A stretch of 62,952 nucleotides of DNA, counting the filler, from Klebsormidium nitens (Eukaryota > Plantae > Klebsormidiophyceae): the NCBI GenBank assembly GCA_000708835.1. It is 4 parts of 4 records of this genome, joined end to end, with 100 filler letters (N's around TTAATTAATTAA, not from the genome) between each part and the next. Parts side by side here need not be neighbours in the genome. Positions count along the whole stretch, not along the records: positions 30,591 to 41,684 come from DF238135.1; positions 41,785 to 59,864 come from DF237955.1; 2 more parts are not named here. One strand, given 5' to 3'. The notes under the pieces are model-generated. The model worked only from the letters and a program-made list of their open reading frames with translations. It ran no database searches and was not told where the DNA came from. The translations under genes and the position numbers were made by a program. Positions 32,604-59,610 of this stretch are shown one piece after another (position 1 is the stretch's first letter; each line of letters opens with the position of its first letter).

Positions 32604-33037
32604 GTGCCAAGTGACCAAGGACTCGCACCAATTCTTCGCGGTCGCTCGTCGCGGACGTCATCAGAGCTAGCCCGGGCCTTGTCTCGCCGCCGGTGTCCAA
32701 GTGTCCAAGGTCCGCACCAACTTTTCGCGGTCGCTCATTGCTGACGTCATCACAATGCGAGCATGTCCAAGTGTCCAAGGTCTGGCACCAACTTTACGCG
32801 GTCGCTCATTGCTGAAGTCATCACGGTGCGAGCATGTTCAAGTGTCCACGGTCTGGCACCAACTTTTCCCGGTCGCTCATTGCTGACGTCATCACAATGC
32901 GAGCATGTCCAAGTGTCCAAGGTCTTGCACCAACCTTTCGTGGTCGCTCATTGCTGACGTCATCACAGTGTGAGCATGTTTAAGTGTCCAAGGTCTTGCA
33001 CCAACTTTTCGTGGTCGCTCATTGCTGACGTCATCCA
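32604..33037. repeat. 70-71-bp tandem array (6 units) carrying TGTCCAAG-TGTCCAAG and TGACGTCA, 3' of helicase copy 1
   Basis: Units start at 32694, 32764, 32835, 32906, 32977, plus a degenerate unit at ~32604. Confidence 0.9.
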
Positions 33038-33308
33038 TCAATCCAAGCAAAGCTTTTGGCCAACATTGTTGACAACATCATCACATGGAAATCATTGAAT
33101 GCAATCGTGGTTGTTGAGCCATGAAAAAACATGTACCATCAATATACATTGGCGAATTTCAACAAGTGCAGATCATAGTTCCAAAAAGCATGCACACAAA
33201 TGTTCCCAATGTGACTAGAAGAACGTGAAGCTCGTCGGGAGTCTGAATTGCATTGATAGTCACCCTGTCATTACCATGTTTGTAAAACTGTGCAAACATC
33301 GAAGCGTA

Positions 33309-36300
33309 TCATATAGCGTAAGAGCACCTAATCCCCGGATAGTAGAATTGCCGAGGCGAATCGTTGTTCTTGGCCCTCTTGAATCCCTTTGTATCCATCC
33401 TTCTCCTCAACTCCTCATAGGAGATCCTCTTGGAGGAATACTGCCCATAGCAGGCTGCGAACTCAGCCTGCAGTGTCGACAAACCTTCCCCGACCTCGCA
33501 GTGTTGGTCGATGAACATCTGGAGTTTGTCCGCCTCCCGCAGGTACTCGTCCGTTGCATCCTTCACGGCTTTGGGGGGAGAACCAAGTCCCTCTGCACTG
33601 TCGTACCACTCCACCGAGCCGCGAGCTAACCAGGATAGAATCTGCCGACGCGACTCCTCTTCCTTCATGCGTTCCTTCAGGTGATTGTCTCTGAGGCGGT
33701 GGGTTACGTTCGTTGGGTCGAAAGCGTTTGCATCGACGTACGTGTTGGGAAACGGGATTGCTCGCAGTCGGCGCTCGACGTTGTCCTTGATCGCCGTTGC
33801 GCATATTGCAGGAGGGTAATTTGTCTGCACGAACGGTGTGTGCGTGACAGTGAACTCGACGTTGTTTGTGTGGAGGCACCGCGCCTTTGTTGTGCCGCTC
33901 CCTGTCATCGCCAGGACGATACCTAGATCCACCTGATCCTCTTCGGCCGTCTCGTCGGTGACGGCAAGCCGCACGCCCATCAGCTCGTAGATGTGGTTTG
34001 TAGGCGCATTCTTAGAGGAGGCCTTTTGGCCAGGAGCCGTGACGACCGCGTCCTTGGACATCGTGCCGTAGTAATCGCCTACCACAGCCTGCAGCATCTC
34101 CTTCAAGGCACCCTTTCCATTTCCTGCAGAAGGATCAATGAATAAGTTCAGGTCGAGGTATTACCAAGTGAGTGTTGGACCGGCTCCACCGGAGAGCAGC
34201 AGACATTCGTCCATGTGGCTTGAAACTCGACTTGTAAATTTTTGTCAATCGAAAGGCCAATATGCAGGACCACTGATTGGTCGAGTCCTTTGCCACACCG
34301 CCAAATCCTACACTCTCGCAATGCAGGAGCACGGTCCTCGATGTTAAGAGCAGATGCATCTGGAACTCCCTAGATTCGTACTTGCACAATTTTTCCAAGT
34401 CTTGGATCCGAGACCAGAAAAGTCGGAGAATTACCTCCCGCTCCAAGCAAGAGCACAAAGATGTCCTCCCGAGTGTGGCCATTGATGGCGTAGCCAAACA
34501 GCTTCCGTACGTAGTCGACAAGCTCGGCGTCATGGTTGAAGATGTTGCCTATAAAGGCATCCATGCGCGGAGTGGGATAATTTGTCCCCTGCAAGAATGA
34601 TAGGCACACCTGAAAGATTGAATGGATCAACTCTTTGCCTTGTTAAGCGCAAGAGGAATGGCATCATAGCACGTCTTCAAGCAATCAGAGGTTTTGCACA
34701 CTTGTGCCAGGACGGGATTATATGACTCAAAAGCCTTTAGAAGACTCAATGGCAAAAGCATGCGTGCAGATGGCGTGCTCGGATTCTTGTGAAGATAAGC
34801 AATGGAAAAAAAAAGCGTGCAATCTCCATGAACGGTCCGCCAGCTTTCGTAACGTGTTACCTAGTCAATGAAGCGAGTTGCTCAATTTTCCATGGAGCAG
34901 CATGAGGCGGCGGGCTTACCATGAAGTCCGTCTCCGCGAACTTGGAGCACATGTACTACTGGGGCCGGTGCACATCGAGCTCGCCGGTCCTCAGGAGGAG
35001 CACTCCGTTTTTCACGTTCAAGATGTCTGGATCTGCATCCAGCTGCTTGGTAAAGTCGAAATCAACCAACTCCCCACGGAGAAGTTCCAGCGTACTCGTG
35101 ATCTCCCGGCTGTTGTTGTAGGTGCGCAGGCGCCTCAGCTGCTGCATCAGCGCCTCTTGCTCTTTTTCGTCACTGGTCGTCTCAACAGATGCCTTCCACC
35201 CGTCTCTCACTCTCTCACTCGCGCATAGACGATCCTGAGCTGGTTGATAGGCACGTTCTTCACATAGAAAGCGCTCTTCTCGTCGCGAATGAAACGCGTT
35301 TCGTTCCAATACCACCAGCTTTCTCTATCGAAACGCAGCCTGCGGAAGGGCAAATACTTGGCATAAGTGCTAATGAAGTAACGTGTTGATTCACACCAAT
35401 CTCGACCGACGTTCTCAAAGCGTCTTTTATCTTGCGTTGAACAGTGTCAAAAACGGCTCTGATCGGCAGTAAAGCATTTCCAGCAGAGCAAAGCACGATG
35501 ATGATGTCAGCAATGGGCGACCACGAAAAGTTGGTCACAGAGCTTAGACATTTGGACGCGCCCAAACAGGCCCACGTTCTGATGACGTCAGCAATGGATG
35601 ACAACGAAAAGTTGGACACAGAGCTTGGACACTTGGACACGCCAAGACAGGCCCACGTTCTGATGACGTCAGCAATGGACGACAACAAAAAGTTGGACAC
35701 TGAGCTTGGACACTTGGACACGCCAAGACAGGCCCGCGTTCTGATGACGTCAGCAGCTTTGAGAGCTGGTCAATCCAAGATCTGACGAGTATTTTCCGCA
35801 ACTCTTGACATTATCGCAGAAGCTGCTGCTCAAAACCTTTGGTTACCTGTAACGCTTCAAGCAACCAAAAACACGATTCACCGCTGACAGATTTTTCAGA
35901 GCCTCCGACCTACTGGGAACACTCCCGGGACATTCCCACCTGCCGCAGCTTGCATACATCTCAGCGACAATCTTGATGCCGCCGACGTCTCCCTCAAAGG
36001 CCCAGGCGTCTACAAATCTCTTGTGCAGACTGTTGATCGCGCTAACGTCATCAGCACTGAAAGCCCGAGTCTCGCCCCCAGACATCGCCTCCGAGCGCGT
36101 AAGCTCTCCAATCTTGAGCAGGGGGCGGACCCCATGGCACTCCGAGCTGTTGCAGCAATAGAGCAGGTTCTTCTTGCGCACGAGCACGGAAAAATTGTTG
36201 GAACTGTCGTGGTGATTACCGTACGGGCAGCGTCAAGGGCCAGCCACTCGAAAGACGTACATTGGCCCGCTGTCGCCCATCTTGAGGCGATCAAAACGGG

Positions 36301-37715
36301 AGGCGGCCCGTGTCGCCCGTGGCAGCCACACAGGCCTTGACGCGCTCCAGAACCGCTGCTGGGGGAGTCAGCCGAGGGTCTTTGATTGGACGAGGAGGTC
36401 CAAACAGTACAGCCTGCGGCTCACTGCATAAAAGCGGGGCGCTCTGTTGTTGAAATCCTGGAAAACTGGATTGTAGTTGCTAGCACTTTGAATGACCGGA
36501 TCCGAAGTAGACTTTGTGAATAGAGAGACAGAGCCCCCCGAGTCTTTAGCAGAAGCCCGATCGGACAGTGAGCTTGAAAGCCATCAAACGGACCAGATTT
36601 ATCAATCTGAGAAGCATGGCATGCGTGCCACCGGTCGCTAGTGCACAGGGTCTAGTGGCCATCATCGATTAATACCCTACAAGTAGAGGCAAGCAAGCCT
36701 TGGACCGCAACAATCATTAAGATACTTTTAGCAGCTTAAAGACGTTTCAACGGTCTTGCTAACACTCCCAAATCTATAGAAGCGTGGAGAGGTCGGAAAA
36801 ATGATGCTTTTCAATCGCCTTCGCTGACGTAACTTCTCAAAGACACCAAAAGGTGCGCTGAAGCTTGGACAACACAGACATGCCCAGTCAAAACCAAATG
36901 CCGAACCAATTGAACTCAAATGGATTGCGTTACACTCTTCTACTCGTATCAAATATCTACCGGATGCAGAAAAGATAAAGTCAAAGACGACTTCAAGGCC
37001 ACGTATGGAGCACTGAGTAGTACATACCGGGCCCCATCACCATCCCAAGGCACCCGCCCACGGCCGCTTGGCGCTTCGCCGCTGTCGTTCAAGATGCGAC
37101 TGAGCCAGTCGGGCGCGGCTCGGAGATTGGAGCGGTTGGGCAGAATCTCGTGGTCCCACTTGTAGCAGCGCAGCGTGCCGTCGAGGCCCGTGTAGCTGCT
37201 AGGTGCGGTGTACAGCATTCCCCGCCTTCCACGGACATCAATGCCCACCGCTTTGCCCTTGTACCGAATCTTTGCCTTGTTGGCAAGTTGCACAGGCCGG
37301 CCTTCTCGGACAGAGACAGAGAAAAGAGGATGTGCAGTCCTCCATTTCCTTGGAGGACTCGCGGCGTGTCCTCCAAAAACCCTCCATGCTCTTCGAGCAT
37401 TTGCTCGAGTGCTTCGAAGCCCCCGTCCTTGACGTCAACATCGAGAGCATAGATGTCCGACTGCTCCGTGATAATGGCGATAGAGTTGCGCCCTGGCTTG
37501 GCAAACTCCTGGAGACAGTTGCCAAGGTTTGCCTCCTTCCAAGGCTTGGACTCGGAGCCCCAATTGCACGGCTGCTTCCGGACTTGACCGTTTGGAAACT
37601 GCTTTTCGAGAAGGTCGTGGGTGACTGTCACAACGCCAAGGCTGTGGAAATGATGAGCGGCGGCCAGGACGGAGTCGATCGCCAGTACAGGAGCTTCGAT
37701 AGATGGGCTCAGTCC
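33309..37715 (-). pseudogene. Primase-helicase copy 1: Prim-Pol + Zn ribbon + D5_N + SF3 helicase + wHTH; at least 3 spliceosomal introns; inactivated
   Basis: Prim-Pol motifs YALDVDVKD, GLHILF, GIDVRG; Zn motif RCPYGNHHDSSNNF..LLYCCNSSEC; introns 35340-35846, 34589-34919, 34124-34434 restore RYR|LRFDRESWWYW, DFM|GTNYP and Walker A GAG|GNGKG; Walker B LAVTDE; motif C QTNYPP; ERRL. Lesions: frameshift ~37280, TGA at 36233-36235, frameshift ~35210, TAG at 34956-34958. Confidence 0.9.
35499..35756. repeat. 81-bp tandem array (3 units + partial), inverted relative of the 32.6-kb array, inside the 35340-35846 intron
   Basis: tgatgacgtcagcaat...gaaaagttgg...cttggacacttggacac at 35499, 35580, 35661, 35742; reverse complement matches the 32694-33037 unit core. 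Confidence 0.9.
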
Positions 37716-37802
37716 CTGGAGGGAGAAAAGATGGATTTTTTAGATCAGCCTGCTCTTGATCTTGAAAGGCACTCAAGCATGCCCCACTATTGGAAGAAAA
37801 GG

Positions 37803-38043
37803 TGATGTCAGCAAAAAGTTTCCACCCAAGAGTTTGGCAAAAGCTTGGACACGTGGACACCTGTTGTATCGAGCCTCGACTCCGAGGGTCCGTGTCGAAA
37901 GCACAGGAACGCCGAAGCGTTTAGCAGATGTATGGACCGTCCAGTTGGTCGGACTGTGCAGAAGAGTCGTTGAGGAACTGGAGTGATGACGTCAGCAAAG
38001 AAAATCCCCTCCAAAAGTTTAGTAAAAGCTTGGACATGTGGAC
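37803..38043. repeat. Two further diverged copies of the same motif between divergent primase and YR-like genes
   Basis: gatgtcagcaaa...aaagcttggacacgtggacac (~37803-37860) and tgatgacgtcagcaaa...aaagcttggacatgtggacag (~37983-38043), each followed by tgtatcgagcct. Confidence 0.7.
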
Positions 38044-38318
38044 AGTGTATCGAGCCTAGGTTGTCTTATGGAGAAAGTGACGGAAGCATGAAAAAACTGA
38101 GGCGGATATCTGAACTGTCCTGACTTTATTGACGTGTCGTCAAGAAACTGGTGCACTTTTCTCCAACAAATGCCGCTGCCGATAGCATTTTTCAAGATAT
38201 AAATGTTGTGCGACTTTTCCTTGTCATTATTTTATGACATCAACGGTTGATATAAATAGGTCTGCACGTCTGGTCATGTGAAAATTATTGTCGAAGCTCT
38301 ACTATATGATCAATAAGT

Positions 38319-39149
38319 ATGGATGCCTTGCGTCAGCTGTTCACCGACAACATTCGAACTCAGGCATCCGTTGATCAATACGTAAGGGGCATTGCCCGTA
38401 TCTATCAATTGTGCCATGATCGACAACTATCCAATACAGATGATTTAAGCTTTTTGGAAACAGACGCACACGTTTTCACTCAGCTCGTGCATGATCGATA
38501 TGCAAATCCTGGATCAAGAAGGACCCGATTGGCCCCTTTTCTTGCCGCTTGTAAAAAGCTCGGAAACTCAGAAGCTTATCAGATTTATTTACAGCCCTTT
38601 CAGAAGGATAATCAGCCGTTGAAAGAACTTCGTGAGGAACAAGCCGCTGAATCGGGGCATGACCCTATGAAACAACTCGAGATGTCACGTGAAGACATTG
38701 ATCTTTTGGGTAGCAAGCTTGCCTGAAAGGTCCGATCTTTGTCACACGTTGTTGCAGACGACCTCGACAGAAAGGATGTGAAAACCATAATGATACATTT
38801 GCTCGTTGAATGGCATCTTCTGATAAAAAAGCACGTCAGACGAGGTGTGAAGATCTATCATTTACCTATCATTCTCAAGAGGAGTGGAGGCCAGCACGAT
38901 GACACCGAAGATGCACTGATCCAGACAAGTCGGTCAAATAACACGATTTGTTTACTGAAACAACAAGAGTTGTACGAGCTTCCAACAATGTTTTGTAAGT
39001 ACCTTGCTAGAACGTTAGAGCTCATCCCTCGAGACTTTTTTATAACCTCAGTGTCTGATCCGCTAACACCAATGTCAGGGAGCAATTACAGCAATTTCTG
39101 CGGTAAGCTTCTTTTCAACGGAAAGTCACTCAATCTTGAACGCATCTAA
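38319..39149 (+). pseudogene. Degenerate or truncated tyrosine-recombinase paralogue
   Basis: ORFs 38319-38726 and 38739-39149 are in the same frame, separated by one TGA. N-terminus (SVDQYVRGIARIY...DDLSFL...LAPFLAACKKL) aligns with both intact YRs (TVEQYCARVMRLF...DSLDWV...LSPLLVIARKL). C-terminal LLRH/MGH/Y motifs absent. Confidence 0.65.
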
Positions 39150-39228: not shown

Positions 39229-40332
39229 ATGGCCACACGGGTAGTTCACATCGAGGGGCCACACAATCAGAGGAAGGCATCGCCATCGCAGTTACCAAAA
39301 CTAAGGAGCATCCTCAAGGTTAAAGATGGTCGTGATGGTTCAGAGGCAACTTTACGGGCCGACTCTACCGTGAATGTATACCTCCGCCAGATCCTAAACA
39401 TATACACAATTCTTAACCCAAACCAGCAACTAGATGACGATGTGTCTATAGATTGGATAAAAGATTATGGAACCGTGATAAATGCGATCGAAAGTTTGTT
39501 AGACAGAAAAGGAAAACCCATCAAATCGCTTACAAAAAGTTCTTATGCGGCACCATTTTCAATCCTTGCTCAGAAGAAGGGCTTCGAGGACGCACAACGA
39601 GCGTACGGTGATTTCATTGAAGCAAAAAAGCCTACCGAGGTCGAGCTGGATGAAACAATGCAACGCAAGACACCAAAGGAGCTTGAAATGTGGGTGCCTT
39701 GGAAAGAAATGATCAAGGTAAGAGACAACCTTGATCAGATTATCACACGAACAATCATTGAAAAATTTAGAAATGGTCGTGCATTGACGCGTAGCGATAA
39801 AGAACTCGTTAACGACCATTTGATCCTAAGCTTGTACACAATGCCTCTCGGGCCCCTACGGAACGAGTTTGGGAGTTGTCGAATTCTCATAAAGGAGGAA
39901 ACTGAAGAATTTGAAGCAAAACCTGGTGACATCAATACATGTATTCTAACAAAGGATCTTGAGCATTGCCAATTTGTTATCAGCAGCCACAAGACACTCA
40001 ACAAGGTGGGCATACGGAGATTGCACATTCCTGAAAATCTAGTCAATGTCATTCTTCGAAGCTCTAATCTCTTTCCAAGATACTACTTGGTCATGAAACA
40101 TTACTATCTTGGCTTTAAAGATGAACCAATCAATAATTTTACCATTGTACTGAACGATTTGGGTCAACGTCACTTTGATAAGAATCTATCGTGCACGTTG
40201 CTCCGTCATATTTCGCATACAGAGCTCACACCCAATTTGGGTTCCCGAGGGGAGGTACGAAAAAAGTGTGAATGGATGGGGCACTCGCTTTCAACGGCAC
40301 TCAATCATTACGAGCGGCGGTGGTCACGTTGA
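39229..40332 (+). CDS. Tyrosine recombinase (PLV/virophage/NCLDV-type)
   Basis: 367 aa; catalytic-type motifs PLRNEF (R), SHKT (K), LLRHI (R), MGHS (H), NHY (Y) in the correct order. Confidence 0.9.
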   Translation: MATRVVHIEGPHNQRKASPSQLPKLRSILKVKDGRDGSEATLRADSTVNVYLRQILNIYTILNPNQQLDDDVSIDWIKDYGTVINAIESLLDRKGKPIKSLTKSSYAAPFSILAQKKGFEDAQRAYGDFIEAKKPTEVELDETMQRKTPKELEMWVPWKEMIKVRDNLDQIITRTIIEKFRNGRALTRSDKELVNDHLILSLYTMPLGPLRNEFGSCRILIKEETEEFEAKPGDINTCILTKDLEHCQFVISSHKTLNKVGIRRLHIPENLVNVILRSSNLFPRYYLVMKHYYLGFKDEPINNFTIVLNDLGQRHFDKNLSCTLLRHISHTELTPNLGSRGEVRKKCEWMGHSLSTALNHYERRWSR

Positions 40333-40806: not shown

Positions 40807-41683
40807 ATGATGCTTCGTGCATACAATGAAAACCATTTGGAAATCTTGAGAGGGTTGTTGTTCATAGGCGCGCCGTGGACTTCGGATGGCTTAGGGCGCG
40901 TTTCAATACCAAGAAATTTTTCTAGAATAGAAAATATTGCACAGTGGCCGGAGATGGAACTGTTGAAAATATTCGAGGAGTACGCTAACGAAGGCCTGTA
41001 TGCTATTCCGGCAAAGGCTTTACTAGGGCAAGATGGGTGTAGTAAGAGGGTACTCGGAACTATGCCACATGCGAACGGGGGCACAGCTATACGGTCAGCT
41101 TCCGATTGGAATGCTTCAAAGAAGAGAATGAAGGAATACGTACACGAAAAACAGTTCAATTCTATCGCAATCAAGACTGGCTGTATATCGGATGTATACG
41201 TTCTGGATATTGATGTCAAGGACAAAGAGGACGAAGACGTATCGGCTGGAATGCCGTTTTGGAAGAGCTTGATTGACAAACATGGAGAGCCAAACACGTT
41301 AAAAGCAACTACTCCTCGTGGCGGATTTCATTACTACTTCTCGTTTTCGAGCATCCTCAAAGATGGTCTCAAGTCCGGTAAGAACTTTGTGGGTGTAGAT
41401 GTGAATGGTCAAGTCTATGGAATTGATGGTCGTGGTGAAGGGGGAATTGCGTTTGCTCCACCGAGCTCGCTTGGCAATGGAAAAGAATACAAATGGAATG
41501 TCACACCGAAAAGGACCAATATTGCAACCGCTCCAGCATGGGTGATTGAACTCATAAATACTTCTGCTAGACGAGTTGGTCGTAACGGACAGATAGACAT
41601 ACATGACGCATCCCGAATAGTGCGTTGTTTAGAGCTCAATGAGCAGGACGAGTCGTTTCTACACACCGCTTTTGCAGACGAAG
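40807..41683 (+). CDS. Prim-Pol (bifunctional primase/polymerase) N-terminal domain, truncated by a gap
   Basis: YVLDIDVKD, TPRGGFHYYF, GIDGRGEGGIAFAPPS, YKW...APAWV; closely parallels the N-terminus of 43650-46511. Confidence 0.9.
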
Positions 41684-41784
41684 GNNNNNNNNNNNNNNNN
41701 NNNNNNNNNNNNNNNNNNNNNNNNNNNNTTAATTAATTAANNNNNNNNNNNNNNNNNNNNNNNNNNNNNNNNNNNNNNNNNNNN

Positions 41785-42895
41785 CCAGCCGTACGCGGCC
41801 CTCCTTCACGCGCTCCTCATCCCGCGCTACTCGTGGGTGTTTGGTCATGTGGTGACGCTGAGGTTGCTTCGCCACCTGCTGCTGGAGGGGCCACTCGACG
41901 AGCGAGGGATGGCGTATCTCTCTAACGACGGCCCCATGCTGGCGGCCATTTTGCGTCTTCACCCCGTGGCAGGGGGGGTGTACGCCTTCCCGCCAATGTT
42001 GCGCCCCCTCATTCGCGACATTTACGCCGTGAACCTCCTCTGCTTCGAGCCGAGCGGGAACCGGCCCCGCTCCTCCTCTTGTTCGCCTTTGGCGGCTCTC
42101 CATGATGCCACCGAGCACTTGTGGACGATCGAGGGCGAGAAGCTGAGGCTCGTGGGCCAGCTGGACGCGGCGGCCATGGAGTACGCGGAGCGGCATGGGG
42201 CGGCGCTAAAGCGGGCTGCCAACTCGCTCATGTTCGAGCTCGAGGTTCGCGAGCCCGAGTGCTATGGGGTGGGGGGCTTCCTCTCGGCGCCGTCGGCAAC
42301 TTATGCCAAGCGGGTCGCAGCCGTCTCGTCGTACGATTTCCACCCTTTGCTGTACGGGCGGCCACGGTTCGTTGATTGGGAGGATGAGGCGGGCCGTGGC
42401 AAAAAGGGATCGGAGGAGCGGCTCACTCAACACTGTAGCGCCCCAAATCCACGGTCGTCCAAGGGCCGTGCGGGGGTCTTCATTGCTTGCTGCCAGGACC
42501 GAGCCCCTTTTGGCTACCATTGGCTCAAGGGGGGCGAGTCGGTGTCGGACTTAGGGACCGTTTTGCTCACGAGGTTCCCGTTTCGGACGCTGCGGGGGCT
42601 CACAATTGTGGAGGATGCCGCGTGTAATGGCCAAGAGTGGTTTTTGAATCGGGTGCCGCAGCTGGCCAAGTTCATGCTGTTTGCCGTCGATCGCTTCCAC
42701 TCGGGGCCCGTGAGTTGCGCTCCATCGGGGGCAAAGCGCTACGCGACGCACACGTGCGCCCCAACCCTTTTTATCGATTCCTTTCCACAACATCGCCAGA
42801 CGATCACGACAGCTTCGGAGGGCATCAACTCGGGGTTGAAGAGATGCGCGGTTAGCCTTCAGCAGATCACGAGTATTAAGCGGCTGCTGAGCTGA
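41785..42895 (+). mobile_element. KDZ (Kyakuja-Dileera-Zisupton) transposase fragment
   Basis: GVFIACC...GYHWLKGGES...LLTRFP...IVEDAACN...LNRVP...FAVDRFH...C...ASEGINSGL matches my recollection of the KDZ core; 5' part in the gap; ends at a TGA beyond which the frame continues. Confidence 0.75.
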
Positions 42896-43340
42896 GTCAC
42901 GACCATCCTCGATACTCTCTTTGAGCGATCAAAGTACGCAGTTTTCTGGAGCCAAGATAGCAATCCTTTGAGGGAATTGATCAAGAGGGGGCGTTCAAGT
43001 TGAGGGCGTTGCCAATATAGATTAATTGCCACGATCCAACAAGGAGAGTAGCGCGCTTTGTGAAGAGCAATAGCAATTACAGCAGGCGGGTGCGTGTGGA
43101 CTGTTGAAATTCCAAAAAGGCTGTTGATTGGGCTAAGATGACACTTTGTTGTATCGATTGCATGATTCGCTACTGATACAACATCGATACACAAATCTAG
43201 GGCGTGTATCATATCAAGAGAGTACACAATTGGTCTTTCAATGACTTCAAAATCGTTCAAAATGCTTGAAAGTGGTGCCTCAAGGAAGCATGTGCGGTGT
43301 GAGTGCGCGGAAAAAGTGTCAAGAGTATGAGAATCTGGTC

Positions 43341-43466
43341 TGATACAATTGATACAGCTGATACACATAATCCCCACATGCTCCTCTCTATATAGCAATA
43401 TTGTTTTTTTTTGTTGTTAAAGAAAATCTGTATAATATGCTAGTGTATCTTGTATCATCTGTATCA
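43341..43466. promoter_or_regulatory. Putative replication origin: inverted iteron triplets flanking an AT-rich core
   Basis: TGATACA at 43341, 43350, 43359 (9-bp period); 78-bp spacer with a T-tract and AT-rich run; TGTATC(T/A) at 43444, 43451, 43460; two more TGTATCA at 43637 and 43646. Confidence 0.6.
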
Positions 43467-43649
43467 CCCCCAAACGGCGCATCACACTCCACGGCCGCCT
43501 TGTTGCACGTTTTTGAGCCCTCATTGAGGCAAATCAACACCCAGCTTAAGATTTAAAAGTCGGAAAAACATCACAATCAGATCATAAAGTGGAGATTTTG
43601 ACGCTGATTCACGTCCGTTCGAAATGGCGAAATTCTTGTATCAAGTGTA

Positions 43650-46963: not shown

Positions 46964-48016
46964 TCAAAATTGGATGCGACTTCCATCGGGTTTGTACTTA
47001 AGCTCATAGTGGCGCATCGCGATCGGTGCCGTGTGCAACATCGACTTGGCAAGCTCATCTCTCTCATGGAGGCTTGGCGCATCCTTCATTGCATTACTCA
47101 CAGTAATTTTTCGAAGGAGGCACGATCCCAAATTTGAGTCGGGATAAATGGCTGCTAAGAACTTCGTCAGGTACCCTGACCCCATTGGGGCGTCTGGTGT
47201 CCTCATTCGGCTTAGAAGGTACTTTCGTGGGAAAATAGTGAGACTTTCCGCAATCACATTGCAAAGCCGGGTTGGTATGTCAAGAACTTGTGGGCCGTGT
47301 GTCTTGTCCGTCTTGTAAGAGTTGAGATGAAGCCTATAGGTGCCCTTTGCATACTCTAGAAGGTAGTTGCGAGATCCGGACATCAACTCACGTGCGGCAG
47401 CGCTCCCAACCTCTTCGAAGCGCACGATGGGAAGATCGCTCCAATCATTACGAATTGCTGGCATTTGAGTGTACAAACAAAGGACAAGGTATCGGCAAAG
47501 CGTTACCTTGTCCGCAACAGTGACCTCTTCTGGCCTCTTTGGCACAATGGATCGATTGATCTTCCGTTGAAGCTCGACGCGGCGGTGGTTGATTTCGTCA
47601 AGCGTTTTCCAATTCTTGGCTTCCCGTTCTGACATGTGTTGGGCAGGCCGAGCATCCTCCATGGCCTTTCGAACGGCTGTGTATCTCTTGAAGAGTGCCT
47701 CGTAGGTTCGTTGATCACTAGGCCACAATTTTCGAGCAATAACGAGAAGCGGACTTAGGCTCGTAGCTTGAGTTGGTAGCTTGTCGGAGTACACGGTATC
47801 CAGATACTCGATGATCTTGGTCGTATCCTTCACCCAGTCGAGAGAGTCGAAATCCTCCTTTGGAGCATATATGCTCTTGAATAGACGCATCACGCGAGCG
47901 CAATATTGCTCGACAGTGTAAGGTTTTCGCGTCGAATCATCAAACACGTCATGGAGCAGCTGTTCGCCTGATATTGGGGTCCTTATAACCTTTGTGTTTG
48001 CATCTAAAGCATCCAT
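46964..48016 (-). CDS. Tyrosine recombinase (PLV/virophage/NCLDV-type)
   Basis: 350 aa; AIRNDW (R), SYKTDKTHG (K), LLRKI (R), MLHT (H), RHY (Y). Confidence 0.9.
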   Translation of the reverse strand: MDALDANTKVIRTPISGEQLLHDVFDDSTRKPYTVEQYCARVMRLFKSIYAPKEDFDSLDWVKDTTKIIEYLDTVYSDKLPTQATSLSPLLVIARKLWPSDQRTYEALFKRYTAVRKAMEDARPAQHMSEREAKNWKTLDEINHRRVELQRKINRSIVPKRPEEVTVADKVTLCRYLVLCLYTQMPAIRNDWSDLPIVRFEEVGSAAARELMSGSRNYLLEYAKGTYRLHLNSYKTDKTHGPQVLDIPTRLCNVIAESLTIFPRKYLLSRMRTPDAPMGSGYLTKFLAAIYPDSNLGSCLLRKITVSNAMKDAPSLHERDELAKSMLHTAPIAMRHYELKYKPDGSRIQF

Positions 48017-48871: not shown

Positions 48872-49019
48872 AAAATGACCAAGACTCTCTAATCAATGTC
48901 CCAATTCATGTGCCGCTTGTAGCGGCCTTCGAGTTGAACCTTCGTTCCAAGACATGGACTGATCCCCCCATGCTTGACCCCCCATGCCCTTTGTGTCCTA
49001 GTCCGGCCGCTTTTCAATT

Positions 49020-49635
49020 GACCATACCACGTAACATGTTTGAATATTGTAACTCATGGAGCGATTCGACAGGAGGACAGGACGGACAGGAGATTCTCGT
49101 GTCCGTGTCCCGTCTTATGCAAGTTACACCATACTAAAGGATATTCGAACATTGTGACTTATGAGGCGAATCGACATGTGGACAGGACGGACATGAGATC
49201 TTTCCGTGTCCGAGTCCCGTCTTACGCAAGTTACACCATATCTCCTAACATGTTCGAACATTGTGATTTATTGGGCGAATTGACAGCTGGACAAGACGGA
49301 CAGGAGATTGTCCTGTCCGTTGTCCCTCATTTATGTGACAGGTAGGGGCGTACCTTAGATACATACATATTCGCAAGCTCGGCCGAAATCCGGAAAAGTT
49401 CGTATTATATCTGTTATAATTTCTTTCTTCTCCGGGGAAGGGATAATAACAAATACGCAGTATAGAGTTCTCCTTGTGGGATCCAAATGCCAATATGTAT
49501 GTATGCAAGACCATACCCCGAAAAGTTGCAATATTGATGATCGACTTTTTGGAGACGAAAATATAACGGATTAGTAGTACGGAGTTTTCGTTGTGGGATC
49601 CACATGCCAATATGTATGTATGCAAGGCAATACCA
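49020..49635. repeat. Long direct repeat, copy A (3 x ~110-bp GACAGGA units plus an AT-rich block)
   Basis: Colinear with 58870-59610; shared blocks include accttagatacatacatattcgcaagctcgg and accataccccgaaaagttgcaatattg. Confidence 0.9.
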
Positions 49636-49752: not shown

Positions 49753-52700
49753 TTATTCCATCTTAACCTCTACCAACTTGAGCGCAAGGCCCTTATACCC
49801 TCGCTCCGTTATGCCGCAATACTTTACGCCGAGGCCAAGTTTGCTTGGCTTGTCCGAACCCGAGAAGCCGTGGTTGTTCATCGCCGACTTCAGGGACTTG
49901 GTGTCGAGCGAGGGGATATGGCCAACGCACTTGCTGCCCACCATCCTCTGCGGGTCGTTGTACGCCTTGAGGGCATCGCTCGTCGAGATGAAGAGGTCAT
50001 CGCCCTTGACGCAGCTGTTTTGGACGAAGTTGTCGAAGTCGTCGGCGGCCTCTTCGTAGTCCTGCAGGGCGTCCATGCTCCGCATCGGCATGGGGTACAG
50101 CTGCTGCCCGTTCTGGTACCACTTGACCGCTCCTGCGACCAGCCAAGCCCGCAACTCCTGCATGTTCTGCAAGGTGCTCAGCTTGGTGAGAAGTCGCGTG
50201 TCCACCAGCCCGTGCAGCGGGTTGGCCGGGTCGTACCCCTTCTCGTGGGGCGAGAAGTAGCGCCGCACGAAGCAAACCAGCTGAAGACGGCGCCGGAGGG
50301 CGACGGACCAGGTCTTGTCCGTCCGCGGGAGGTAGTTCGTGCAGATGATGAGCTGCAAAAAAGGTTCGAGAAGGGCGCAATCAGAATTTTGTTGGCTCAT
50401 TCCCACGAATTCGAGCATGCCACGTGCTCAAGCCAACAGATTCGAGCATGCCACGTGAGATCAAGCCCTCTTGCTGCTGACAAGAGATCGTATCATGTTG
50501 CTGCCGGATCGAAGTCATTCAATTGCAAGAGTTCGATCGCAATCCATAAGTTGGCCTCACCAGAACGGTCGAAGTGAAGGTGACGTAGTCCCGGAACAAA
50601 GGCCGAGCGGTGATGACGTCGCCGCCGGTGAGCTTCTTCATGCCGGCCTCGTTCAGCGAATCCGACCTCTCGGTCTCTTCGACCGCCGCAAGTAGCGCTC
50701 CGGCAAGCCCTGCACAAAAAGCAGAGATCTTCCGGTCAAAACACTGATGCCAATTCACGCACATTGGGCAGCCCCGAAGACAGGATCGACAGGACGAGAA
50801 TCTGCTGGCGGACAAATTTTGCATTTCCTGCCACATTCGATGAGGAACGAGGTAAAATGCTCAGGACATTGAAGTTTGCAGGACGATCCGACGGGATCGA
50901 CAAGACAGACACGAGAATCTGCCGTCAGACAAACTGTCATGCATCCCTAAGCAAATAAGATGCATCATCATTTTAAGTTTTGGGAGAGAGAGGGAGTTCT
51001 GGTGAAGTCTCACCTGCTTCGAGCGGCGAAGCGGCCCCCTTGTGGGCGGCTCGCTGCCCTTTTGAGCTCACCAAAATCTCCTTGCCAACATCCTTGAAGG
51101 CGGCGCCGAGGAGCTTGCGCAGCAGCGCGAGAAGCAGGCTCTTGCCCGCGCTGCCCTCGCCAACAAAGATCGGCAGTACCTGAGAAAGATCACGAGAGAC
51201 TTTACAAGGCTGCAGATGCTCGGCGGCCACCTTCCACGAAAGTCGTCTGCTGTGACCATCACCACAGAACGGGGAAGCGCCAAGACCTTCGACTGAATGG
51301 CTGGCAATTGATGGGCCGAAGATTCGCGATCCTCCACAGCTAAGTCTTAAAACGGCCTCATGCGGTCGTAGGGTCCTTGACGATTGAAGCAGCACGTAAT
51401 CACTCAAGTCCGTCGAACCTTTGAGCTCACGAGTAAGCATTTTAAAAACTGGTAGTACGAATCCAGTGCTACCTACAAGTTACTTCTGTAACTAAAGCAG
51501 AGTTGGTTGATAGCAGCACCTGCCTGATTGCTTGTGTGACCGGTCAGCCCGTACCCGAGCAGCACCTGGAGGTGCTCCAAAGCGGCCGGCCCATCCTCTC
51601 CGGAAACGTGCATGATGTCCTCCAAGAAGCGCACCATCTCGCTCCTTGGAACCAACGATCCAGCGCGAGGGTACGCCCAGTCGATCACCCGAGTGTTCAT
51701 GAACTGCGAACTGTTTTCGACCTGACTCCGGTGGACTTGGCCAATGCCTCCATAAACACAAACTTTCTGCCGAAGTCCCTTAACTGATCTGCGTTTTTTT
51801 GCACACGGGCACAGATCCATCCCTCACCCGAGGGTGATGCGGAAGCAGCTCGCCGGTCCGCAAGGTCGATGACGCCGTTCGCCACGGCCAAGAAGTCCTT
51901 CTGCACGTCCAACAGGGACTGGAAGCCGGGCTGATAGAAGTAGTCCTTGCACGTTCCGATGATGTTGGACATCTTCGCGTTGAAGTTGACGTTGATCAGC
52001 CTCTCCTCCCTCTCCGTCTTACGCTTCTTCCCGCCACCTGCCGGCTTCGACTTGATCGCACCCCATCCCCCGTCCTCGTCCCCTCTCGATCCGTCTGCCA
52101 CAGCGATCGAGACCCCTCCTCCCCCCCCCTCCTTTGCCTCGCGTATGTACTCGGCCTCGATCTTGGAGAGCTCCTCGCGGAGCACTCGCAGGATGCGGCC
52201 GCCGCTCTCGTCCTTCGCCCAGCTCCGACCAGTCCAGTAGTACGAGCCGGAGGAGGTGAAGGCGAACTTGAGGCCCGTCCGGACGTAGAGGCGCTCCAGG
52301 ATGACGGCGCCACCCACGTCTCCTGCAGATATGGGGAGATCGCATTAGGAGGGAGTGCAGATACGACCGAGATGAAAGTGCTTCCTAGAAGTTAGCGCCT
52401 CATTCAAGGGCCCCAAAACGGGTTTGCAGGGGCGAGAAGGCAGATGGTAAGCAATTCATTCCAAGACTGCGCGGTTGTACGCCCAGTCGTTGCTTCTGAG
52501 CTAGTCTGGCTCTCAAGATCGACGACCGTAGGCATCATGCAGATACGAACGAGAAAAAGTGTCTCTTTTAACTTCTCACATTTACAAAAAGGTGAAAAAC
52601 GGGTCTGCAGACTCCGTCAAAACGCAATGAAAAACAGGAGACTGAAATCCAAATCGCAGTTGTAGGACAGGCCTTAGAGCTGCTTCTCAAAGGAGGTCTC

Positions 52701-53221
52701 GGGAGGCAACATTCGAAGCTCACCTTTCCTAATATTCAGATTCTCTCGCAGAAACGGCAGCGGCAGCAGCTGCCGGTCGGAGTAGAGGTGGTTCCGCTCG
52801 CTGTTGAGCGGCTGACTGTCGCCGAAGGCCGCGGCGATCGGCAGGGGGAGAACGCCTAGGCTGATGTTGCCTGACTGCGCGGTGGCCTCGCAGCTCTCTG
52901 CGTAGCACACGTACGTCACCTCGACCCCCTGCCGAAGGAGCCCAAAGGCGTCGCTGCCGTGCACGCCCTCGCACGTCGCGGCGAAGTAGGGGCACGTCAC
53001 GCGCCCGCCAGGCGCGTTCCGGAACTCGTAGATGACCCCTATGCCCGTCGAGGACGGCTTGGCGCCGCAGAAGACCGAGGTGCTGTCGCCCCAGGTCGAG
53101 AGCAGCTTCTCGAGCTCGCGCACCACCTCGGTCTGGAGCTCAACGTTCGCCAGATCCGGCTCTCTGGTAGCACGGGACACCTCGGGGCTCCCCAGCTTGC
53201 AGGACCGGTGTGCCGCCGCCT
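49753..53221 (-). pseudogene. Helicase copy 3: ZnR-D5_N-SF3-wHTH with at least 5 introns; one frameshift; no Prim-Pol exon found upstream
   Basis: Introns 52323-52723, 51704-51827, 51180-51523 (GC-AG), 50710-51013 and 50353-50560 join KG|DVGGA, HHPR|FMN, TSNQ|VLPIFVGEGSAGKS (Walker A), EAG|LAGALLAAVEE (Walker B) and TVL|LIICTN; ALRRRL; +1 frameshift near 51862 (IDL/RTGELLPHH). Confidence 0.9.
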
Positions 53222-54109
53222 GTAGGGGATAATTCCTTGTTAGTAGAAAGAAGATTGCCCCTCAAAATGACTAGGGTCTGTGGCCGAAAGCCTGGGAACG
53301 AACTCGGACAACAGCTGGGCGGAAATCGGTCTGGTCACCGCTCAAAATCAGCACCTTGACTTTGGCTTAGAAGCAACTTGACCGCACCCCCACATACCAG
53401 CCCAACCGCGGGTCAAGATGGGGCAAATACCAAGGCCACGGCAAGGCCGAAACAATCTGATTCGCAGCCCAAAACACCCGACCACGGCCCCAAAATAACT
53501 TAACCACACGTCTGAAATCAGGCCCACAGCACTTAAAGAAAACCAGCGTAATCCGGCACAAGGCCGAACCACGAGCTCGAAACCAGCCTCGCAATGGATC
53601 CTCAAGCGAATCCAAACACCTAGACAAGATTCTTTTTGAGGTACTAGGGCGCAATTGGGATCCGCTTGGAAGTACCAGGCTTGATCTAGGACAACCGATC
53701 CAGTTAAGGCATCGTGAAGAAGAATCGATGCCAATTCTGGCCCACGAGTTGGCAGCAAGAGCGACTGGAGAAGTTGAACCTCTGAGTGAATGTACATGAC
53801 CAGAACGTCATCGATATTTCTGATGCCTGCTCACACATCGTTTGGAAAAACTAGATGGAGACGCACCGTTTTCACTACCTAATGCTTGAGCACATTTCAG
53901 CTGAAGTGACTTGATCGAATGTGGGATCCTTACCCCAATGGTCACGGGCCCCGAGTCGCACGACGTCTCAGCATTCGACTCTGCATCTCCGGCCCCGTCA
54001 CTCTCCATCCCGTCTGCGCGATCCTCACTGCGCATCTTCGCGCTTGGCGAGCCACCCCCCTCTGCTGCACGTGATAGGGTCGGGGTCACAAGCGGCGGCT
54101 GATAGGAGA

Positions 54110-54850
54110 AACACGTGTCCATGCTGTCCGTCCTGTCTGCCAGAGCACGAACGGCGACACGCAGGAGAATATGGCCGACGACGGGATGCTGTTCGTCCAG
54201 TCCGCCATGGAGGACAGGCCGCAAAGAGATCCGCAAAGAGATCCAGCACATGCCCCCCACTTATCCCAATGCTGAGGGGGCTTGCGCTCGACTCCGCACC
54301 ACCAAGATGCCGCATCTACTGCCTCTATCTTATGCCAATCTGTTTGATCACTAGTCGATGACCTACCTCGTTCACTGGGTCAGCGGTGTGCGCGCTTGCA
54401 CGAGGGGAGCCACCAGAGGCGTCGGCAACCTGCAGGAGAGGAGTCGGAAGTTTTGAACGGTGACAGGAGAGACACGTGTCTATGCTGTCCAACTTGTTTG
54501 CTAGAGCACAGACGGAAATATGTATGAGAGCATGAAGAAGACAAGAGAAACACGTGTCCTTGCTGTCCGTCGTGTCTGCTGCTGGAGTGAAGCGCACATG
54601 ACACAAGAGCACATGACACAAGGACTGGGGCATGCAAGATGGCCTTACTCCATCACTCTTGGGGCCTGCGCACAAAGGGGCACCACCGTCTCCGCCTATC
54701 TCCACCTCGTCCTTCTCATCGGCGGTGTGCGCGCTCGAAGGAGGCAAGCGGCCCCCCACCTCTGGAGAGCACCCTCCAGGTACCTGTGGACAGAGAGAGG
54801 GGATGACAAAATGGAACAGAAAATGACGTGTCTCTGCTGTCCCTCCTGTC
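54110..54850 (-). repeat. Four dispersed inverted copies of the GACAGGACGGACA motif
   Basis: tgtccgtcctgtc exact at 54125-54137; variants at ~54485, ~54563, ~54837, each preceded by (a/g)cacgtgtc or gacgtgtc. Confidence 0.7.
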
Positions 54851-56311
54851 TGCCACCCTCTATTTCCAGCAGGCGAAGATGGCAAAACATCACATACGCT
54901 TTGCAACACTTGAATTTGGACTTCGAGAATAAAAGGCAGCTGCATCCTACCCCACCAGATTTGCCCCACCAAATTTGCGAGAACGATGTGCGCACAAGCT
55001 AATCAACCAATTGCAAACCACGCAGGCAGTGGTTGGCTGCACATAGAGGCTTCTGCAGGCAACTCACGACGGGGGGTGCATCAAGCGGGCCTTCAAAGTC
55101 ACCCAGCTCCGTCCGATGTACGTCTTGCCCGTCGCGTTGCGTTCTGGGGGCCCTCAATGCCTCCGAACTTTGGCGATGAGCTTCAACAGCCGCTCGACCA
55201 GCCGCCCGAGCAGCCTCGTCCGCTGGGACAGGGTTCGTTTTTGCCCGTTTGCTGGAAAGCACAAGAAGAGTTCAGGTTTAAATCGGGCGATATCTGCAGC
55301 ACCGGAAATTCAACGGCTGGCTTGCTGCTTCGAAGATCTGCACAAGCTCTGTCGGGGCGCGTGTGGCCGACCGCGCATCGGTCGCGGCCGCTAGGGTTTC
55401 GTTCGACCGTTTTCGAGCACGCGCTTTTGACTCGCGGCCGCGCGTCTTACTTTAGATTCCAGTCTTTAGAAAGCTCGGTACGCTCTCGTCAGCAACGGCA
55501 ATTCGATGAACCCTAACTCAATCTAAAGAGGTGCTCTTGCCATCCGCAAGCCTCAGGGAGCAGCATCTCATTGCGGTGAGGGCACACGAGTCACCCGTGT
55601 GCCGAACATGAGAAGAACAGCGATAAGCTGAACCGACGAGCTTACCGTTTCTTCTTCTGCGCCGGTCGACGATTTCTTTCCGCCACCTTGCCCTGCTTGG
55701 CCCATCGCAGGCCGCCCGTGGCCCGGTCGGATGACTCTCCAAGGTCGTCATCCAGATTGTCTGCCTCCTGGAGATCGAGCAAAAGGTTGCCTTATGATTT
55801 GAATAGACTCCTGTTCGTGGAAAAGCGCTCGACGTCACTGGAACAATCTCATTATGAAAGGCACGACTACCGTCCGAGCGATCCTCAAAAGACTGACATG
55901 CGAGCTCAGGGCAGTGTGTGTGCTACGTGTACTTACTCTATGCCATCATGGGGAGCCAATTCAGCCATGCTGCCTGCAGTCGGGTCCAGTGCGTCTCCGC
56001 TGGCCAGTTCCGAGAGCTTGACAAGTCTCCTCCAAGTCTTCCTGCCCGAGCCTCCTTCTTCTGATGGCATCTGCACAGCCAAAGCCGACCCTTGCGACTG
56101 GTCCGTGCTGGCGTGTTGTCCATCCTCGGGGCCGTCTCTTGCCTGCGAGAGGAAGCATGCGGAGTCTGTTGGACATCGACTCTACAGTAGCTCGGCCGTT
56201 TGAGAATTGCACACAGCATCGTTCAAGGGCTTCATTAGAACTGGGTGAGGGGGGCGTTCAATCTGCGCACTGCATCCGAGTGTCCTAGAGAGGTGGGGGG
56301 AGCGAGCTTCT

Positions 56312-56950
56312 TGACCTGACAATCTGCACTTCAGGGTCTATACAATCACCTTTAAAATCTGGTGCGGATTGTCACAACCCTGATCCAGAAAGTACCCAAC
56401 GAATGCTGTCAACTTGTACCTCCACTTCCACGCAGTAACTTCTCTATTTTTCAATGCAGATTGTCGAAATTGTGGGCCTGACAATCTGCACCCATGGGTC
56501 TACACATTCAACTTTCTTAACCGATGCATATTATCAGCTTTTCGGTTCATGTCTCTTCAAAAGAATCAAAGGAGCGTCCGGCCTGGGTCCCGGCAATTTG
56601 CACCAGTGATCTGAACATATCAAGTTTCTCAACCGATGCAGATTGTCAAACCTCGCTGCATGAAGGTCAGACGAAAACAAGGGGAGCTTCAGTATGGGCC
56701 TGACAATTTGCACCGTTCGACTATACATCGAAGTCTTTCAACCAATGCAAACTGTCAGCTTCTCACAAACACCCAGGAGAGCGCGGCATGGGGCTGACGA
56801 CTCTGCACCACTGGTCTACACTAGAGCTTCTCAACCAAGGCAAATCGTGAAAACCTTGTTCCATGAATCAAAGAAGGACCAAAAGCAGCGCCCGGCATGA
56901 TGGGTCCTGACAATCTGCACCAATGATCTCCATTGGCCTCCATTTCAAGA
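56312..56950. repeat. Degenerate ~105-110-bp repeat with palindromic units
   Basis: gacaat(c/t)tgcacc....ctata/ctaca at ~56318, 56480, 56590, 56700, 56797, 56908. Confidence 0.7.
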
Positions 56951-58238
56951 TAAGCACCAGATCGTGTACACGCATGAGTCTGCATTGAGAGCGCGTCCAA
57001 ATAATGGGTAAAAACTGAGGTTGTGATCACCTGCATCCCTTCAAGGCGTTGCTTGCTGCTAGAGACCGTGCTTTGGACCGGTAGCTCCTTCGTGATGTCA
57101 CGCTCACGCTTCCTGCTTGCCGGTCGCTTGGTCGACCCTTCTTCTTCCTTAGGTGCTCTCGAGCTAGAGTAGTCTGGGCTTGAAGGCTCGGATGGTGCCA
57201 TGGTCAACCTGCAATGGAAGGCCGCGAATGACAAGTCAATGTCATTGCACTCTAAGCGCAGGCTTCTAAACATGCTTGTTTCTTCTGAAATAGCGGGCAT
57301 TAGATCAGCCCAACAGCAGCTTCAGATCAGCCCGACCTCAAGCACCAAATTCAACCGCCCCCAGCAAGCAAGACTGAGCCCCACAACGAGCGACAAATCA
57401 GCCGACAGCAAGCTCGAAATAAGCTGCAATTGGCTCCAAAATCAGCCCCCACATAAAATGCTGAATCAGCCTCCTGCCGAGCTACTCTCTACCTCAGGAT
57501 TGCCCAGTTTTTAAGTTCTCATGGAGCGCTTGCAAAACCTAGTCCTCAGCTGTTTGAGTGGGCACACTTGCAGCCCAATTTGCAGTAGCTCTATTCTTCG
57601 TGCGCCAATCCTGCAGGGGCAGTATAGAAGAAACACACTTCTCCGCATGCTTCTTACGCTCCTACCGCACCTTCAGCTCAATGACACGTTCAACGCCTGA
57701 AGAGCTTGAGCATTGTGTGCCAGCAACCTGCGCAGATGCTCCAAGCTCCAAACCAGCAAGAAACTGATTGACACAATAATAATCAAAAGTAGCGTCTCCA
57801 CCACTTTGCAATCTTCGAAATTCAGAACCAGGTGCTCCTAGCTTGGAATCTCGGCTGTCCAATCAACATCTAAAGAAAGCCGCTAGCAATTGCCACAGCA
57901 AATCAGATTACTACGGAACTTGAGCGCAACAACCAGCCGCCACCCCTTGGTTGGTTGCGCCTCAATTGCGCCAGCTTAAAGAAAACCTGTCTGGACTCTA
58001 CCAAGCTCAATTGACCTGGAACTGCATATCAGGGCCCAAAGCGGCACAAACCGCCAACGAACGAGCAGGAGTACTAGGGTAGAAGTTGCACACGACGAAG
58101 GGCTGCAAATACTTACCTGTAATTGCATGCAAGAAGGTACCAATGCGCTCCCCCTGATTTGAAGAGAGATCCTTGGAAATGCCTTTATGCTTGACCCCCT
58201 CAACTCAAGATATTCCAAGTATGCTTCTTGAAGGTTCT

Positions 58239-58459
58239 GAGCTGAAGCTGGACACATATCCTCCATGCAGAGCTGCCATGGGCTGCCACCCCTGCGCCAA
58301 TTCCTGCCACTGCCAGCTCAGCACACCCCACAGAAAACTGACCAAGCTGAGCTGGAGCTGGACACATGTCCTCCATGCAGAGCTGCCATGGGATGCCGCG
58401 CCTGCGCCAATTCCTGCCGCTGCCAACTCAGCACACCCCACAGAAAACTGACCAAGAGC
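58239..58459. repeat. 110-bp tandem duplication
   Basis: gagctg(a/g)agctggacacat...cagaaaactgaccaag at 58239 and 58349. Confidence 0.85.
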
Positions 58460-58869
58460 TGCCGCGCAGCGCCAGCTCTTGCCGATGCCTGTTTGCGCAA
58501 CCAGCGGCCAAAGCAGCTGCAGAGTGCCATGCTCTGCCGTCTCTTGCGGATGCCAGCAAGTCTGACAAGCGTGCTGCAGCTTCCCCCCCATCTTGTGCTG
58601 CAGCCAGCACATGGTGGAGACGGGATTCGCTTCGCGCACAACGCCACTGCTTGCCATTGCAGTTCAAAAAAACCTCAACTTGACGCTTGCAAGTCTTGCT
58701 AATCGAGTTCTCTACTTTAAAATGCTGGAAAGAGCACCACAAATGCGCTAAAGTGGTGGCCGTGGTTGGACTTTCTAGCTCTTTCGCTCAGAATACAATT
58801 CCTGAGGTGGAACGAGTCGACCAGACTGAAGCCTGAAGGAAAGGACGGACACTGGACTCACTGGCAGTC

Positions 58870-59610
58870 TTAGACTTAGGACTCGGGAGGATCTTGTGTC
58901 CGGGTCCCGTCTTATACTTGACCATACCTCGTAAAATGCTCGAATATTGTAATTAATGGAGCGGGTCGGAAGGAGGACCACATGATAGGAGGATCTTGTG
59001 TCCGGGTCCCGTCTTATACTTGACCATACCTCCCAAAATGTTCAAATTTTGAGCGAGTCGACAGGTGGACAGGACGGACAGGACATTCTCGTGTCCAAGT
59101 CCCCTCTTATACGTGACCATACCTCCCAAAATGTCCGATTATTGTAATTGATGGTTCGAGTCGACAGGAGGACAGGACGGACAGGAGATTCTCGTGTCCG
59201 AGTCCCGTCTTATACCTGACCATACCTCCCATATTGTTCGAATATATTGTAATTGATGGCGCGAGTCGACAGGTGGACAGGACGGACAGGAGATTGTCCC
59301 ACCGTCCGCATTTTATGTGACAGGTGGGGGCATACCTTAGATACATACATATTCGCAAGCTCGGACGCAATCCGAAAAGTTCATACTGTATCTGTTATAA
59401 ATTCTCCTTCTCCGAGGAAGGAATTATAACAGATACGAGTATAGAGTTCTCCTTTCGGGATGCATTTGCCAATATGTATGTATGTAAGACCATACCCCGA
59501 AAAGTTGCAATATTGTGATTGACTTTTTGGAGAAGAAAATATAACAGATTAGCAGTACGGAGTTTTCTCGCTCGGCTCCAATTGCTAATATGTATGTATG
59601 TATGGCCATA
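58870..59610. repeat. Long direct repeat, copy B (4-5 GACAGGA units plus an AT-rich block)
   Basis: Colinear with 49020-49635 in the same orientation, with scattered substitutions. Confidence 0.9.

Follow-up and report, generated by a model that had tools for sequence, protein, structure and literature searches.

Candidate iteron origins of replication beside the P4/D5-type helicases of three mobile-element families in the alga Klebsormidium nitens

The 62,952-nucleotide stretch of Klebsormidium nitens DNA analysed here (GCA_000708835.1; hereafter the window) contains three mobile-element helicases, numbered 1–3 with their elements, all of them P4-alpha/D5-type superfamily 3 (SF3) proteins accompanied by arrays of short repeated words. 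We conclude that these arrays are probably the replication origins (iterons) of three old mobile-element families, each predicted to be bound by the P4/RFX-type winged helix of its own family's helicase. The words, their position, the layout of element 2, which resembles that of Staphylococcus aureus pathogenicity islands (SaPIs), their selective conservation and two of the three C-terminal folds are observed; binding, melting and priming are carried over by analogy from SaPIs and P4. For element 2 we consider the assignment very likely, while for elements 1 and 3 we lean towards it with much less assurance. An origin function is more likely than the proposal that started this work, the original prediction of a private word for each paralogue.

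The window joins separate contigs through N-TTAATTAATTAA-N linkers (30491-30590, 41685-41784 and 59865-59964), with helicase 1 on contig 30591-41684 and helicases 2 and 3 both on contig 41785-59864; helicase 1 is therefore physically unlinked to the other two. Additional copies of each of the three helicase families are present in K. nitens, and helicase 2 is 99% identical to KFL_010060020. The introns of helicase 1 were inferred from gaps to gene models P0029 and P0031, and this copy is broken by two in-frame stops and by frame changes relative to its relatives. Helicase 2 lacks seven residues of the first C-terminal helix that relatives such as P0006 retain, and helicase 3, compared with its relatives, carries one frame change near 51863. 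No Prim-Pol domain was recovered for helicase 3 in a domain search on its relatives. Over this gene, run X18, whose RNA nature is our guess, provides nine GT-AG joints (of 15 listed) that are absent from three DNA runs, and its spliced helicase-3 contig shows no differences. Element 2 lies outside the coverage of X18, and no RNA run was listed for it.

The repeats themselves were found as originally described: TGTCCAAG doublets with an 8-bp period behind helicase 1 (32694-33000), TGATACA triplets with a 9-bp period behind helicase 2 (43341-43365 on the plus strand and 43444-43466 on the minus strand), and GACAGGA/GGACA triplets behind helicase 3 (49066-49330). The three C-terminal peptides quoted alongside them were also confirmed. 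Given on a single common strand, they read TGTCCAAG (element 1), TGTATCA (element 2) and CTGTCC (element 3). When the top 6-mers of four 800-nt regions were compared with 200 dinucleotide shuffles each, their counts were reached by 0, 0, 1 and 0 shuffles, and all three word sets exceed this expectation. The placement of arrays 3' of each helicase holds for the main arrays; a further element-3 copy (58886-59610) lies upstream of its helicase, and units also occur in introns and upstream.

In element 2, the first iteron starts with the stop codon of helicase 2, and the facing triplets enclose a gap of 78 bp with 71% AT. Such opposed iteron sets around an AT-rich gap, directly downstream of the helicase, are also described for SaPI origins in the accessible parts of two studies (PMC9371898; bioRxiv 10.64898/2026.10.17.759575). 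The 752 bp behind helicase 2 contain 12 copies of TGTATC, against 0–3 in every other element zone. Depth and spacers were compared by aligning run contigs to the window at 80% identity, with the caveat that run X1 is probably the source of the window DNA. Depth in run X1 is 40–407 over the neighbouring transposase-like open reading frame (ORF) of the Kyakuja-Dileera-Zisupton (KDZ) type and 45–273 over helicase 2, and single-copy (13.5) across the spacer between them, except at 43410-43483. Four X1 contigs and one X5 contig align within this 711-bp spacer solely at the triplet (43443/4-43466/71, 24–28 nt), although only 14 of the spacer's 683 28-nt windows contain three words, and all five continue into the DNA of a helicase-2 relative; joints with such short sides were flagged as less reliable, and three are tied by equal depth only. 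Two of the five resume alignment only at 44254 and 44329, beyond the C-terminal domain. Three also match the KDZ-like ORF, a linkage read piece by piece in record 4 and by equal depth in the other contigs. Because the triplet is retained in five contigs though the spacer around it differs, it has been kept while its surroundings turn over and is common to the family. None of the eight X5 substitutions listed in 43040-43660 falls inside a word, and in a further X5 contig with a different protein tail TGATACA again begins at the stop codon.

In elements 1 and 3, conservation likewise centres on the words. The invariant columns of nine aligned element-1 units cluster in TG.CCAAG and the TGACGTCA box, and TGTCCAA has seven copies behind helicase 1 and none behind helicases 2 and 3. 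GGACA recurs at 9-bp spacing in all 11 aligned element-3 units, whose invariant columns are mostly words; each unit carries inverted word sets in DNA of 53% AT, and the 105-109-bp downstream units hold GGACA triplets with inverted TGTCC sites. A 648-bp direct repeat (79% identity) brackets helicase 3.

Several further observations concern these repeats and their surroundings. The TGACGTCA palindrome, which we take to be a bZIP/CRE-type site, is kept at a fixed distance from the doublet in the element-1 units (32604-38050) and is possibly a host-factor site. GATACA, the element-2 word, precedes each of the two upstream element-1 units (37866-37876 and 38044-38052), and three repeats spaced 109 bp apart (GTATAGC..GGTGCAAAT) lie just past the element-1 array at 31812-32207. 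Beyond element 3, a very high-copy repeat at 59611-59864 has a depth of about 2,200 in run X1, against about 15 for single-copy DNA; at 59610 the element-3 repeat stands in place of its usual left flank, which may mark an insertion junction.

As in P4/SaPI-type replicons, all three proteins combine D5_N and SF3 helicase domains with a C-terminal winged helix, an earlier assignment that stands by structural model for helicases 1 and 3 and by alignment alone for helicase 2. The helicase-1 tail model, with a predicted local distance difference test (pLDDT) score of 87, matches RFX5 (Z 8.6, root-mean-square deviation (rmsd) 3.2, 76 residues aligned), RFX1 (Z 8.2, rmsd 2.4, 69 aligned) and the P4 origin-binding domain (Z 7.1, rmsd 2.5, 70 aligned). 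For helicase 3 the model is less confident (pLDDT 69) and RFX is again the top match; Foldseek E-values for the tail models were all above 0.001. In P4 alpha, the C-terminal winged-helix domain binds the origin repeats, according to the available text of PMC4234260; in SaPI5 PriRep5, the wing contacts bases and the helix contacts the backbone, according to that of bioRxiv 10.64898/2026.10.17.759575. Because the PriRep5 wing contacts bases, co-variation should be sought in the wing and not in the recognition helix, and by this analogy the words here are probably read by the wing.

Phage relatives offer a broader view of how words and tails are matched. From 80 phage loci, 65 distinct helicases remained after removal of fusions, short flanks and duplicates, and for 39 of these no more than 1 of 100 shuffles equalled the gene-end 6-mer. 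A group of 40 loci has a helix motif in common; within it, five wing types pair with five words in every case (40/40), with the wing classes drawn after the words were seen and many of the loci near-copies of one another. Placed on the motor tree of these loci, the words require 11 changes (minimum 4); identical motors carry different wing-word pairs; and loci L008 and L012 have near-identical tails with different wings and different words. Since the word follows the wing and not the motor, wing and word travel together as a cassette, and the wing-word code is an old family trait. At the helicase 3' ends of these viral contigs (L003-L080), the pairs are NKTF/GGTTAC, NKV[FY]/GGTTAA, NKLF/GGTTAG, GTGNK/AGTTAC and GNYNKNY/TGTTAC, a residue-to-base-like pattern within one phage group.

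The window's own words also recur in viral contigs. Word 2 forms a canonical origin at L110:3830-4030, with six TGTATCA facing three TGATACA right after a 1012-aa helicase, on a 22-kb contig that we read as polinton-like from its ATPase and capsid-like ORFs; behind the D5 helicase of a phage (L193), the word-1 doublet TGTCCAAGTGTCCAAG is likewise arranged as a canonical origin. Polinton-like viruses (PLVs) may generally carry iteron origins behind the helicase, and, to judge from these sequences, the word vocabulary is small and reused. The expectation that a shared word implies a similar tail failed, L110 ranking 68 of 69 against the helicase-2 tail profile and L193 62 of 69 against that of helicase 1. 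Most matches in the viral word scans were chance or coding matches: for word 1 and for word 2 alike, a single origin emerged from 80 flanked loci; a further 29 (word 1) and 40 (word 2) loci had short flanks. The element-3 word was matched at 20 loci in metagenome contigs; these neither carry a helicase nor resemble the window.

Among the alternatives, the best surviving sees the elements as no more than fossils of endogenous polinton-like or giant viruses, fragments with capsid genes beyond the contigs and with origins that were active only in the virus. Element 2 runs from a PLV-type tyrosine recombinase (YR2) through a short spacer, the intronless Prim-Pol-helicase and the origin to the convergent KDZ-like ORF, and a recombinase adjoining a primase-helicase is the PLV end module in the available part of PMC11296320, a trait of a subset of PLVs. 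The nearest atlas clusters of YR2 are viral (Preplasmiviricota/Nucleocytoviricota, mostly Preplasmiviricota), and its relatives occur on two viral contigs of ~20 kb. A fourth element, E0, repeats the recombinase-to-Prim-Pol order, and gene model P0011 fuses a recombinase of the YR2/YR0 kind to a helicase-2 relative. The TGATACA origin of the PLV-like contig, the contig ends close to E0 and element 2, and giant-virus core genes reported in Klebsormidium (accessible text of PMC5294986) also fit a viral source. Against it stand the introns of helicases 1 and 3, the latter spliced; the presence of each family in numerous copies in K. nitens; and the KDZ-like gene, linked to the origin and a helicase-2 relative in several diverged copies (all ten best family matches of this ORF fall in one family or clan, yet it has no Pfam match). 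Furthermore, helicase-2-family loci accounted for 0 of 202 stretches in viral contigs and 0 of 106 in metagenome contigs, and no helicase resembling these three is carried by either of the viral contigs that come closest to the recombinase. No capsid or packaging ATPase gene was seen among window ORFs scanned with Pfam and PHROGs, general rather than PLV-specific profiles, on contigs that end beside E0 and element 2. We regard a viral fossil as unlikely overall; it is compatible with the origin assignment on what the words are.

It is more doubtful that origins are confined to element 2, with the units of elements 1 and 3 being subterminal transposase- or host-factor-binding sites or satellite-like tandem repeats. 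The element-1 units are inverted at opposite ends of the gene, share the conserved TGACGTCA box and have no AT-rich gap between facing sets, and the element-3 repeats are 650-bp direct repeats, multi-copy in the genome, all of which would suit such a role. Yet neither element yielded a further DNA-binding or transposase gene, the 8-9-bp periods agree with that of element 2, and TGTCCAAGTGTCCAAG occupies an origin layout in L193.

Several points do weigh against origins bound by matching helicases, in addition to the short contig joints and the late-drawn wing classes mentioned above. The canonical arrangement of facing sets separated by an AT-rich gap is absent from elements 1 and 3: the element-1 downstream words all have one orientation, in DNA of 45% AT, and the recurrence of units in introns departs from a canonical origin. 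All three helicases look damaged, and these copies have probably decayed. TGTCC is shared by the words of helicases 1 and 3 even though their tails, at 15–18% identity, are the least alike, and the DNA behind other helicase copies was compared for the helicase-2 family alone. Joint transfer of a neighbouring wing and origin could by itself give the phage match, and, with the same words behind unrelated tails in L110 and L193, no general code is readable.

The last alternative, the original prediction, is that a word private to each paralogue keeps related elements out of each other's way, as in plasmid incompatibility groups; with three distinct word/period pairs for three helicases, numerous wing variants in the helicase-2 family and fine wing-word matching among phage relatives on its side, we still consider it improbable, slightly more so than origins confined to element 2, given that the same triplet is retained in at least five other helicase-2-family contigs (two of which fail to align at 80% to the C-terminal DNA of helicase 2), that TGTCC is common to words 1 and 3, that identical words recur with unrelated tails in viruses, and that many integrated, mostly damaged copies with the same word coexist in one genome. 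The accompanying claim of conserved cores with a strongly divergent last 60 residues did not hold. Across 117 pairs, the tail keeps 0.87 of core identity (r = 0.92) and so diverges scarcely faster; the window helicases are pairwise 20–29% identical in the core and 18–29% in the tail, and relatives compared between clades 20–31% and 15–32%. Words 1 and 3 differ in kept flank and period, and given three lineages at 20–31% identity, different words are expected from age alone. We do not propose a common origin for the three clades, which a first tree joined (support 86) and which a set of 102 sequences places as separate deep lineages among unnamed proteins; these trees were quick ones, built without an approximately unbiased (AU) test and leaving out representatives beyond P0110 and five redundant rows.

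Under the origin assignment, and following SaPI and P4, the helicase hexamer would dock onto the facing iterons, the beta-hairpin wing reading the bases of the word, and would melt the AT-rich gap; the helicases of elements 1 and 2 would then prime synthesis, amplifying an excised or integrated copy. The word would be a family label common to many copies, changing together with the wing as an adjacent cassette, and element 2 may be excised and integrated by its tyrosine recombinase or KDZ-like transposase.

Compared with known systems, these elements most resemble the SaPI and phage-inducible chromosomal island (PICI) Pri-Rep-ori modules (SaPI5 PriRep5, SaPI1 Rep1) and P4 alpha with its ori, sharing the primase-SF3 fusion with a C-terminal winged helix, the short iterons directly behind the gene that face across an AT-rich gap (element 2), a nearby integrase, and a helicase-1 tail model that folds like the P4 origin-binding domain. 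They differ in that they reside in the nucleus of a eukaryote, their primase is of the Prim-Pol type, two families have spliceosomal introns, and the words are embedded in 71-109-bp units at several places; SaPIs and PICIs proper have a bacterial host and helper-phage packaging, whereas here the host is K. nitens and introns are present. With the PLV end module, E0 and element 2 share the recombinase type and the order recombinase, small ORF, primase-helicase, but element 2 has a linked KDZ-like gene and no capsid or packaging gene in view; no terminal inverted repeats were found for it in the window repeat comparison, its ends being undefined. The accessible part of PMC11296320 proposes terminal repeats as the PLV origin, and the term iteron is absent from it. 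In entomopoxviruses, mobile D5-like helicases are flanked by repeats, as here (PMC4642659, in the portion available). With KDZ DNA transposons the common feature is a KDZ-like transposase ORF, which here accompanies a primase-helicase with its origin as well as a tyrosine recombinase. The archaeal plasmid pRN1 protein ORF904 likewise combines Prim-Pol, SF3 and a winged helix with an origin just downstream, although that origin is a stem-loop and not iterons (PMC4234260, text available in part).

Table 1. Coordinates of the genes and repeat units of elements 1–3 and E0 along the window.
Feature	Position	Strand	Description
Element 1 downstream array	32604..33035	+	six ~71-bp units, each TGTCCAAG doublet + TGACGTCA box
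Helicase 1	33309..37724	-	Prim-Pol, zinc motif, D5_N, SF3, winged helix; three inferred introns
Element 1 array in inferred intron 2	35499..35755	-	three 81-bp units, doublet + box, inverted relative to downstream array
Element 1 unit in inferred intron 1	36815..36885	-	single, degenerate
Element 1 units upstream of helicase 1	37795..38050	-	two units, inverted relative to downstream array
Degenerate second tyrosine-recombinase-like gene	38319..39149	+	two ORFs; blastp to YR2, E 3e-5 and 6e-3
Tyrosine recombinase YR0 (E0)	39229..40332	+	26% identity to YR2, E 2e-19
Prim-Pol domain of E0 helicase	40807..41684	+	PF09250, E 2.6e-17; cut off by contig end
KDZ-like transposase ORF	41837..42895	+	convergent on element-2 origin; atlas 0.95 to KDZ clusters
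Element 2 candidate origin	43150..43652	.	12 GATACA words from stop codon on, with facing triplets
Helicase 2	43650..46511	-	intronless, 953 aa; Prim-Pol, D5_N, SF3, winged helix
Tyrosine recombinase YR2	46964..48016	-	type found in polinton-like viruses; atlas 0.98
Element 3 downstream repeat	48991..49632	-	two ~116-bp units, then three 105-109-bp units
Helicase 3	49753..57201 (to about)	-	multi-intron; long N-terminus, zinc motif, D5_N, SF3, winged helix
Dispersed element 3 units	54095..54863	-	four, with GACA triplets, in or beside introns
Second copy of element 3 repeat	58886..59610	-	79% identity across 648 bp; oriented as the downstream copy; lies upstream of helicase 3

The degenerate recombinase duplicate at 38319-39149 lies immediately upstream of YR0. 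On a further contig, 60395-62951 holds endonuclease (PF03372) and reverse-transcriptase-like ORFs of a non-LTR (long terminal repeat) retrotransposon, all but PF03372 read by eye. Run X12 shows a strong C>T and G>A excess among its differences over 41785-59864.

Wing-word matching is already known for SaPI and P4, as are recombinase plus primase-helicase modules and repeat-flanked helicases in polinton-like viruses, from the available parts of PMC11296320 and PMC4642659. We found no literature description of these Klebsormidium elements or of iterons in polinton-like viruses, though supplements or subscription papers might list them as repeats or viral remnants. The new points are likely iteron origins in nuclear elements that a streptophyte alga carries in many copies, a recombinase-helicase-origin-KDZ layout, and families whose genes contain introns. 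One possible picture, offered tentatively, is that Klebsormidium hosts undescribed capsid-less, self-replicating nuclear elements: plasmid-like iteron replicons with their own primase-helicase and origin, moved by a tyrosine recombinase or KDZ transposase, two families having intron-containing genes that seed origin units through element and genome, and all kept apart by the wing-word code. Phage satellites and plasmids are characterised by sequence-specific iteron origins and a self-loading helicase, and selectively conserved iterons in the nuclear elements of a streptophyte alga, related to the land plants, point to eukaryotic mobile DNA that replicates plasmid-like. They predict where the origin lies in some polinton-like viruses, and the natural wing-word pairs provide material for studying how RFX-type winged helices read DNA, with a possible use for orthogonal replicons in algae or plants.

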